A stretch of DNA of 64,000 nucleotides from Escherichia coli (GTDB lineage: Bacteria > Pseudomonadota > Gammaproteobacteria > Enterobacterales > Enterobacteriaceae), in the NCBI RefSeq assembly GCF_003334765.1, contig NZ_QOWT01000003.1. One strand, given 5' to 3'. Of the stretch, positions 3,603-64,000 are shown piece after piece. The position numbers and the translations under genes were made by a program. Within the stretch, counting starts at the first letter, position 1, and each line of letters begins with the position of its first letter. The notes under the pieces are model-generated. The model did not search any database, was not told the DNA's origin, and was given only the letters and a program-made list of their open reading frames with translations.

Positions 3603-3679
<77 letters not shown>

Positions 3680-5073: not shown

Positions 5074-5171
5074 GCCGGATGCGGCGTGAACGCCTTATCC
5101 GGCCTACAAATCATGCAAATCCAAAATATTGCAGGAGTTATGTAGGCCTGATAAGCGTAGCGCATCAGGCA
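5074..5171. repeat. REP/BIME element (two inverted REP units)
   Basis: gccggatgcggcgtgaacgccttatccggcctaca and tgtaggcctgataagcgtagcgcatcaggca, a typical REP consensus in opposite orientation. Coordinates approximate. Confidence 0.8.
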
Positions 5172-8148: not shown

Positions 8149-8165
8149 TTCGCGATCGCAAGGTA

Positions 8166-8370
8166 AAAAAAAGCACCGCAATTAGGCGGTGCTACATTAA
8201 TCACTATGGACAGACAGGGTAAATGTACAGGAAGTGAAAAAAGGTAGCTTTGCTACCATGGTCTGAATCGCAGACCAATTGCAAACACAACAACACAACA
8301 TCACAACCGTAAGCCAAAAGTTCACCAGAACACGCATTCCGATAAAACTTTTCGTTCCGGCTCAGGAAGT
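8166..8370 (-). ncRNA. gcvB: GcvB small regulatory RNA, divergent from gcvA
   Basis: The reverse complement matches the GcvB sequence as I recall it (ACTTCCTGAGCCGGAACGAAAAGTTTTATCGG ... GCACCGCCTAATTGCGGTGCTTTTTTT), including the GU-rich region and terminal terminator. Ends approximate. Confidence 0.9.
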
Positions 8371-26541: not shown

Positions 26542-26908
26542 GTCGACAGGGAGTCAGACAACGAAGTGAACATCAGGATGATGACACTTCTGCAGGACAC
26601 ACCAGGATGGTGTTTCAGGGAAAGGCTTCTGGATGAAGCGAAGAGGATGACGCAGGACGCGTTAAAGGACACCTCCAGGATGGAGAATGAGAACCGGTCA
26701 GGATGATTCGGTGGGTCAGGAAGGCCAGGGACACTTCAGGATGAAGTATCACATCGGGGTGGTGTGAGCAGGAAGCAATAGTTCAGGATGAACGATTGGC
26801 CGCAAGGCCAGAGGAAAAGTTGTCAAGGATGAGCAGGGAGCAACAAAAGTAGCTGGAATGCTGCGAAACGAACCGGGAGCGCTGTGAATACAGTGCTCCC
26901 TTTTTTTA
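26542..26908 (+). ncRNA. csrB: CsrB regulatory RNA (CsrA-sequestering sRNA)
   Basis: About 367-nt non-coding stretch starting GTCGACAGGGAGTCAGACAACG, with six exact CAGGATG repeats plus about ten further GGA-containing variants (AAGGATG, CTGGATG, GAGGATG, CAGGAAG), ending in the hairpin gggagcgctgtgaatacagtgctccc followed by TTTTTTT. Confidence 0.93.
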
Positions 26909-26952
26909 TTCCTGCTATCCTTCGCGGCAGTTTTTCTTATTGAGGTTGCTTT

Positions 26953-62752: not shown

Positions 62753-63487
62753 ATGTCCAAACTCGATCTAAACGCCCTGAACGAACTGCCGAAGGTAGAT
62801 CGCATTCTGGCGCTGGCGGAAACTAACGCCCAACTGGAAAAACTGGACGCTGAAGGCCGCGTAGCCTGGGCGCTGGATAATCTGCCCGGTGAATATGTGC
62901 TTTCTTCCAGCTTCGGCATTCAGGCGGCGGTGAGCCTGCATCTGGTGAATCAGATTCGGCCGGATATTCCAGTGATCCTCACCGATACCGGTTATCTGTT
63001 TCCGGAAACCTACCGCTTTATTGACGAGTTAACGGACAAACTCAAGCTCAACCTGAAAGTGTACCGTGCTACCGAAAGCGCCGCCTGGCAGGAAGCACGC
63101 TACGGCAAACTGTGGGAACAGGGCGTTGAAGGCATTGAAAAGTACAATGACATCAACAAAGTCGAACCGATGAACCGGGCGCTGAAAGAACTTAACGCGC
63201 AAACCTGGTTTGCTGGCCTGCGCCGCGAACAATCCGGCAGCCGCGCCAATTTACCGGTGCTGGCAATTCAGCGTGGCGTATTTAAAGTGCTGCCGATTAT
63301 CGACTGGGATAACCGAACTATTTATCAGTACCTGCAAAAACATGGCCTGAAATATCACCCATTATGGGATGAAGGATATTTATCGGTCGGTGATACCCAT
63401 ACAACCCGTAAATGGGAACCTGGCATGTCGGAAGAAGAAACACGTTTCTTTGGCTTAAAAAGGGAATGTGGATTGCACGAAGGGTAA
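62753..63487 (+). CDS. cysH: Phosphoadenosine phosphosulfate (PAPS) reductase
   Basis: ORF-track frame 62600..63487; the 244-aa product starts at the ATG at 62753 ([21 protein letters not shown]...), ending ...ECGLHEG. Confidence 0.95.
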
Positions 63488-63751
63488 ATATTGCCGGATA
63501 AATTAAACGCCTCTGTCAGAAATGATGGGGGCGTTTTTATTTTGCGAGCAGTATTCCTGATTTTAAACGTGAACGCCGCTGGAAGAATTATCAGGTATAG
63601 AATGGCGTCGGGTGCTTGAGGCTGTCTGGCGTTAAGCATTCGCGAGGTTCCAGATGGACAAAAGCCCCAGGCGATATTTCTATCAACCTGAGGCTTACGT
63701 TCGAACCCAAACAATTCGAATGTTAGTCTCTTCTTTGCAGGGAGGCAAGAC

Positions 63752-63904
63752 ATGCTGACAAAATATGCCCTTGTGGCAATCATAGTGCTGTGTTTTACAG
63801 TACTGGGATTCACGCTGATGGTAGGCGACTCGTTGTGTGAGTTGAGTATCAGAGAACGTGGTATGGAGTTTAAGGCAGTTCTCGCTTACGAATCGAAGAA
63901 GTAG
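63752..63904 (+). CDS. Hok/Gef-family type I toxin-like small membrane protein (50 aa)
   Basis: Not in the ORF track (under 60 aa). ATG at 63752 preceded by GGAGG 6 nt upstream; product [50 protein letters not shown] has one TM helix, the conserved LCE motif and the C-terminal AYES motif of Hok/Gef proteins. Confidence 0.75.
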
Positions 63905-64000
63905 CCACCACGCGGGGGTAAAACCCATAAGCGCTAACTTAAGGGTTGAACCATCTGAAGAATGCGACGCCTCGGTGCCTCGTTAAGACGATGCCTCGCG

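Follow-up and report, generated by a model that had tools for sequence, protein, structure and literature searches.

The hokX/sokX locus beside cysH in Escherichia coli and its interruption by IS186

Known hok/sok systems and the locus beside cysH

The hok/sok system of plasmid R1 provides the established model for loci of this kind, and the mechanism put forward here for hokX is taken from it. According to this model, pairing of the tac element with the fbi element at the other end of the molecule would keep the full-length hok mRNA untranslated and closed to the antisense RNA Sok. Slow trimming of the 3' end would free tac, which would then pair with ucb (63632-63641 in the locus described here). 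Both mok and hok would then be open to translation, except where the unstable Sok RNA binds and leads to cleavage by RNase III. The Hok peptide, once made, would enter the inner membrane and the membrane potential would collapse.

On the E. coli chromosome, the interval from cysH to the cas-E genes contains a hok sok system in every strain other than carriers of the K-12-type cas-E2 module (PMC3903273). IS186 insertions are known at this spot beside cysH, and IS186 at the cysH-cas spot is a known driver of rearrangements in the neighbouring CRISPR-Cas I-E module (PMC3903273). In a set of 237 urinary isolates, hok and sokX adjoin cysH in 90%, and the rest, like K-12, have sokX only (PMC12736100). 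The gene has been published under the name hokX (PMC7232551), and hokX/sokX of E. coli B or of most E. coli is described in all three of these papers (PMC7232551, PMC3903273, PMC12736100).

The DNA analysed here, called the window, is a stretch of 64,000 nt, and the locus under study lies at its 3' end. By sequence, it is the hokX/sokX type I toxin-antitoxin locus of the E. coli chromosome, in an allele that E. coli B also has. Publications or routine annotation already cover the locus together with its name, its distribution and the IS186 insertion. The RefSeq label beside cysH is "Hok/Gef family protein"; because RefSeq annotates the gene as a matter of routine and the literature already names hokX, the frame at 63752..63904 is not an overlooked gene. 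A minimal track of open reading frames can miss a complete toxin frame together with its Sok gene, and the importance of this is slight beyond correct annotation. What the earlier reading of the window did overlook is the IS186 copy and the severed 3' UTR of the hok mRNA, as well as the fact that K-12 has retained no more of the locus than sokX and the leader. The upstream neighbourhood is as follows.

62753..63487, plus strand: cysH (PAPS reductase), the upstream neighbour, from the ORF list and the RefSeq annotation of strain 602354 mapped to the window
63505..63536, plus strand: intrinsic terminator-like hairpin of cysH followed by a T-run, from a terminator scan (14 pairs + T-run)

The hokX ORF begins 264 nt after the cysH stop at 63487, and the terminator-like hairpin separates the hok unit from cysH. 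Weak, sub-threshold Rfam matches to ctRNA_p42d and Spot_42 at 63505-63536 are terminator look-alikes. Strain 602354, identical to the last 521 bases of the window, has the gene order cysH, hok, the transposase of IS186 (IS4 family) and cas3. The initial annotation had put the locus between cysH and the cas operon, and this placement holds: the cysH stop lies upstream and, in strain 602354, cas3 lies just past the end of the window. All 5426 complete E. coli genomes match the stretch 63480-64000 in part, and 4146 of them contain 80% or more of it; the toxin gene is thus present in at least 4146, and the ORF-bearing part is lacking in ~24%.

The closest described relative is E. coli B. Strain REL606 is 100% identical to the window over 63300-64000 except for an extra IS150, and it shares both the Hok protein (WP_000956460.1) and the IS186 junction of the window. 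The IS150 of REL606 sits at the equivalent of ~63690, inside the leader and the Sok gene, whereas the leader in the window is uninterrupted. Behind IS186, REL606 has a CRISPR array remnant and iap and has lost its cas genes, whereas strain 602354 keeps cas3. The extra IS150 and the absent cas3 of REL606 rule out that the window is E. coli B itself. The K-12 sequence ceases to resemble the window precisely at the hok ATG (63754), and cas3 starts 92 bp later. The K-12 remnant thus consists of leader and sokX with no toxin ORF, in agreement with a published account in which the cas module has been replaced (PMC3903273).

Two further K-12 loci allow comparison at the level of paralogs. Of the two K-12 toxins aligned with HokX, HokE (78% identical) is closer than HokC (39%), a ranking that leaves out HokA, HokB and HokD. 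The hokE/sokE locus shares with hokX the leader family (Rfam, 84 bits), the relative position of Sok, and an IS186 located 22 nt past the toxin stop in the homologous hairpin loop. It differs in its site (ybdK-entD), in the orientation of its IS186, which is opposite, and in its 83-codon mok-type frame, which shares the reading frame of hokE and continues into it; mokX, by contrast, is read in a different frame and terminates at the hok start. The hokC (gef)/mokC/sokC locus with IS186A has the same architecture and the same IS186 orientation as hokX; its leader matches the Rfam model at 118 bits, and IS186A lies 23 nt past the stop in a GGGG-N-CCCC hairpin. Apart from its less similar toxin, it differs from hokX in that mokC is an in-frame extension of hokC.

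Plasmid R1 hok/mok/sok resembles the locus in protein family, leader family and antisense layout, and the uninterrupted hokX alleles also have tac and fbi; this likeness is drawn from established knowledge of R1. Unlike R1, hokX is chromosomal, its mok frame is much shorter and varies between alleles, fbi is displaced by IS186 in the present allele, and no plasmid-stabilisation phenotype is known for hokX.

Leader, mokX, sokX and the toxin frame

The features of the hok unit up to the toxin stop are listed below.

63598..63603, plus strand: putative -10 box (TAGAAT) of the hok promoter, which would be weak, found by eye 6 nt before the conserved 5' end of the mRNA
63610..63767, plus strand: hok mRNA leader (Rfam RF01794), which holds tac, ucb, the Sok target and the hok ribosome-binding site
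63610-63623, plus strand: tac, within the leader
63632-63641, plus strand: ucb, within the leader
63654..63758, plus strand: mokX, 34 codons, with GAGG at 63644-63647, 6 nt upstream, and a TGA stop overlapping the hok start (ATGCTGA)
63654..63712, minus strand: sokX antisense RNA gene, 59 nt, from a gap-free map of K-12 sokX (b4701), 56 of 59 bases identical
63720..63748, minus strand: putative Sok promoter, found by eye, with -35 TTGCCT (63743-63748) and -10 TAACAT (63720-63725), both given as reverse complement
63752..63904, plus strand: hokX toxin ORF, 50 aa, Phe15 allele, RefSeq WP_000956460.1 (the E. coli B protein), from the ORF list, Pfam and RefSeq

The leader is matched by Rfam RF01794 over the whole model (positions 1-157 of 157) at 113 bits, against a gathering score of 59, with E=7e-27. 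This model is labelled 'sok antitoxin', and its match falls on the hok-sense strand in the window as well as at K-12 hokC and hokE. Annotated sokC and sokE of K-12 lie on the opposite strand, inside the RF01794 match. The agreement in strand at three loci therefore indicates that the model describes the hok leader and not Sok, which is the reverse complement of approximately model positions 45-103. Automatic 'sok' annotation from RF01794 is thus on the wrong strand and ~100 nt too long.

The hok promoter and the 5' end of its mRNA are candidate assignments made from homology and by eye. At hokC, hokE and a plasmid hok, the hexamers TATAAT, TAAGAT and TACAAT, respectively, have the same spacing from GGGTGC as the proposed -10 box of hokX. 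No good -35 box was seen by eye for this promoter, and its -10 site is missing from the consensus promoter scan.

An overlapping mok frame, a short antisense Sok RNA near the 5' end and a K-12 sRNA named sokX had all been anticipated by the initial annotation. The antisense RNA, which had been left unplaced there, is SokX: K-12 sokX (b4701; NC_000913 2887353..2887411, on the strand opposite cysH) maps without gaps to 63654..63712 on the minus strand, inside the range 63650-63760 that had been suggested for it. The placement comes from a gap-free alignment of K-12 to the window in which 344 of 355 positions are identical. SokX thus runs from 63712 to 63654, near the 5' end of the hok transcript as foreseen, and its position relative to the Rfam match is the same as that of annotated sokE. 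Its complementarity to the leader is perfect and begins at the mok start codon. In the predicted fold of SokX the 5' part is mostly unpaired and is followed by a long terminator hairpin and a U-tail (z=-4.6 against shuffled sequences). In the putative Sok promoter the two boxes are separated by a 17-nt spacer and the start at 63712 is 7 nt past the -10 box. This promoter would overlap the hok Shine-Dalgarno sequence, and it is invariant in all seven alleles aligned (7/7). The consensus scan did not list it, the score being 8 of 12 consensus positions where 9 of 12 were required.

The expected mok frame is likewise present, as the 34-codon frame mokX, which begins at the 3' end of the Sok-complementary stretch. 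The overlap of its TGA with the hok ATG would fit translational coupling. The mok peptide matches no model in NCBIfam and has no protein-family match. Alleles differ in this frame. The 34-codon form is found in the window, in O26 and in the K-12 remnant, and an 18-codon form, with its stop 41 nt before the hok ATG, is found in five of eight alleles (CFT073 and four others). The stop at mokX codon 19 was created by two different mutations, and the Hok peptide is the same in all alleles with the short mok. Because the mok frame varies among hokX alleles, the coupling model of R1 may not transfer unchanged. A variable mok frame despite an invariant toxin is a loose end.

The hokX ORF runs for 50 codons from ATG to TAG, with a Shine-Dalgarno sequence at 63740-63745, 6 nt 5' of the ATG. 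The hydrophobic stretch (residues 6-24), the LCE motif (28-30) and the AYES motif (45-48) can be read from the translation, and the helix and both motifs are retained in an alignment of HokX with HokE and HokC. All that had been claimed for this frame, namely 50 codons, a good Shine-Dalgarno sequence, a hydrophobic helix, LCE and AYES, is therefore present at 63752..63904. A search with the Hok/Gef family profile had been proposed as a check, and Pfam HOK_GEF (PF01848) matches residues 5-46 of HokX over its entire length (model positions 1-42 of 42) with E=3.5e-11 and 43 bits. An NCBIfam Hok subfamily model also matches (E=1.3e-10). The ORF is thus confirmed by sequence as real, far beyond chance, and as coding for a toxin of the Hok/Gef family. 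Identity as HokA was rejected: the NCBIfam equivalog NF007290 gives 57.7 bits, below its cut-off of 89. No report of killing or depolarisation by expressed HokX was found in the literature.

Eight hokX alleles, with surrounding DNA differing by up to 6.5%, were compared for signs of selection. Nine sites of the ORF vary among them, eight of these being synonymous and one non-synonymous (C15F). This ratio argues that the peptide is kept by selection and that HokX is not a dead pseudogene; by the sequence comparison, it is under purifying selection wherever it is present. Codon 15 (window 63795) is TTT, for Phe, in the allele of the window and TGT, for Cys, in the seven other alleles. Phe15 is the sole amino-acid difference and is common to the window and E. 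coli B REL606 (WP_000956460.1). The residue of HokE aligned to position 15 is Leu. HokA presumably has Phe at the equivalent position, and for this reason the C15F change looks conservative.

The 3' end of the hok mRNA and the IS186 insertion

In O26 11368, CFT073 and other uninterrupted alleles, the toxin stop is followed by a hairpin, CGCGGGGG-TAAAA-CCCCGCG, then by GGTCTCCTGCACCC and a T-run. The fbi element is GGTCTCCTGCACCC, the 3' element just before the T-run. The hok mRNA of an intact allele, from GGGTGCTTGAGGC to the T-run, is 360 nt long. In the predicted fold of this RNA, nt 1-6 and 9-14, which lie in tac, pair with nt 341-354 (z=-3.8), and this tac/fbi pairing, the defining feature of hok mRNAs, is found in the minimum-energy and centroid structures alike. 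The corresponding region of the window is different, as follows.

63911..63926, plus strand: GC hairpin of the hok 3' UTR, left arm and loop, CGCGGGGGTAAAACCC, identified against uninterrupted alleles and the far IS186 junction of strain 602354
63915-63926, plus strand: left copy of a 12-bp target duplication, GGGGTAAAACCC, from comparison of the junctions
63927..64000, strand not assigned: first 74 bp of IS186, which runs off the window, with its terminal inverted repeat at 63927-63948

The hairpin is broken after GGGGGTAAAACCC at 63926, and IS186 begins at 63927, in the hairpin loop, 22 nt past the hokX stop. The terminal repeat is present as a single copy within the window, which holds the first 74 bp of the element; the full IS186 was read in strain 602354, identical to the end of the window. 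There the element measures 1337 bp, ends in perfect inverted repeats of 22 bp and has the 12-bp duplication GGGGTAAAACCC on either side. Its transposase has 370 aa (WP_001300563.1) and is encoded by a gene convergent with hok. The transposase is assigned by PGAP to the 'IS421 family'; identity of the element as IS421 is ruled out by its match to K-12 IS186A at 1336 of 1337 positions. The junctions fit two readings equally: an element of 1337 bp with a 12-bp duplication, or one of 1343 bp that takes in CCC/GGG and has a duplication of 6 bp. The first of these agrees with the 'IS186 +12 bp' reported at lon.

Behind IS186 in strain 602354 the hok 3' region resumes, with the other arm of the hairpin, fbi and the native end of the mRNA all displaced by 1349 bp and outside the window. 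The toxin ORF and every 5' control element lie within the window. A transcript of this allele was folded from 63610 to an arbitrary 3' end, the end of the window at 64000. No tac/fbi end closure is present in this predicted fold; nt 1-32 form a local tac/ucb hairpin in which nt 1-10 pair with nt 23-32. The locus of the window is therefore a hok/sok member by descent that at present lacks tac/fbi end closure.

State of the interrupted allele and alternative readings

The preferred reading, to which a probability of roughly 0.85 may be given, is that this is the chromosomal hokX/sokX locus, in the allele found also in E. coli B and cut by IS186. It would no longer act as a delayed killer module, though the insertion leaves the toxin ORF, mok, Sok and the two promoters untouched. 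Transcripts of the IS186 allele would have no inert, end-paired store and would be open to Sok at once, and so degraded. This expectation follows from the predicted local folding of the 5' end, which would leave the transcript accessible from the start with no stable reservoir; with no such reservoir, the locus is predicted to have lost its delayed killing. The parallel with hokC and hokE of K-12 makes it probable that this hokX no longer serves as a regulated killer module. A passage in PMC7232551, citing Pedersen and Gerdes 1999, treats the K-12 hok loci as non-functional, with insertion elements as the cause in some of them, and adds that such an element has also inactivated hokX in E. coli B.

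The strongest competitor, which is unlikely yet deserves weight, is that the locus still works despite IS186, either by means of another closing helix or terminator inside the element or through periodic precise excision that restores the mRNA. The intact toxin ORF, mok, Sok and promoter regions would suit such a reading, as would the persistence of the interrupted allele: 881 of 5426 genomes (~16%) cover 80% or more of a 60-base probe centred on the junction. The retention of an interrupted allele with an intact ORF in ~16% of genomes would also fit residual function. Sequences that might serve can be pointed to within IS186. The motif GCCTCGG in the end of the element is complementary to UUGAGGC of tac, and a terminator-like site lies ~550 nt into IS186 on the hok strand. 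Precise excision of IS186 has been reported at the lon promoter. Against this, the chimeric RNA is predicted to form the local 5' hairpin and not to pair at its ends, and the terminator-like site is a consensus match of a kind no more frequent than in shuffled sequences. The literature, as represented by the passage in PMC7232551, treats IS-flanked hok loci, E. coli B hokX among them, as inactivated. A substitute fbi supplied by the IS186 end was rejected as unused in the predicted fold and is kept as a minor rival.

The hokX gene is one of several hok genes hit by IS186 at the same point. IS186 lies in the homologous hairpin loop, 22-23 nt past the stop, in K-12 hokC, K-12 hokE, STEC308 hokE and a plasmid hokD-like gene. 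The element in STEC308 hokE is oriented opposite to that in K-12 hokE. The hokX copy of isolate 2-101, a Cys15 allele, carries an oppositely oriented IS186 and was subsequently hit by ISEc12. Taken together, these junction sequences point to at least six independent insertions, in hokX (both orientations), hokE (both orientations), hokC and a plasmid hok. A target consensus of G>=4 N3-6 C>=4 was reportedly given for IS186 by SaiSree et al. in 2001. Each of the IS186 targets at hok genes is CGGGG-N5-6-CCCCG, which fits this consensus and the GC-specific target preference of the element, a specificity that is cited in a passage of PMC3903273. The recurrent hits on the hairpins of hok paralogs are in line with a target-site preference that disables toxin loci; they extend published observations and raise no new question, though beside the variable mok frame they are a second loose end.

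A more speculative, and rather improbable, extension is that IS186 lands on the GC hairpin downstream of hok genes throughout the family and that insertion and excision form a reversible switch by which chromosomal hok toxins would be disarmed and re-armed. The idea of reversibility derives from the ability of IS186 to excise precisely. Such a switch, if true, would explain purifying selection on HokX in alleles with seemingly broken regulation, that is, with IS186 in the 3' UTR or with the 18-codon mok.

It is less probable still that the SokX small RNA itself is the selected part, acting on other hok mRNAs or on unrelated targets, with hokX a dispensable passenger. K-12 offers an argument for this, its leader and sokX being 97-98% identical up to the hok ATG, yet with no ORF behind them. 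The ORF-bearing stretch is also missing in ~24% of genomes, and data sets from K-12 and EHEC list sokX as an expressed sRNA. However, replacement of the adjacent cas module accounts for the K-12 state (PMC3903273), and where HokX is present its ORF bears the signature of purifying selection (8 synonymous sites against 1 non-synonymous). SokX has no known trans target, and hokE, the paralog with the closest leader, differs from hokX in the segment facing the 5' end of Sok. A frame that is open by chance, or a dead pseudogene that codes for nothing, as the very short length of the ORF and the many ORFs of equal length overlapping the region on both strands could suggest, can be dismissed on the sequence evidence in view of the full-length Hok/Gef profile match, the constancy of the peptide between alleles despite differences of up to 6.5% in the flanking DNA, and the Shine-Dalgarno sequence and conserved hok leader that precede it.

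In practical terms, a latent membrane toxin gene adjoins cysH and cas3 in strain backgrounds of this kind. Elsewhere in the window, Rfam matches at gathering level were obtained for CsrB (26551-26910, plus strand), GcvB (8165-8370, minus strand), ES036 (5107-5149, plus strand) and one tRNA (3606-3679, minus strand), all of them ordinary features of E. coli.
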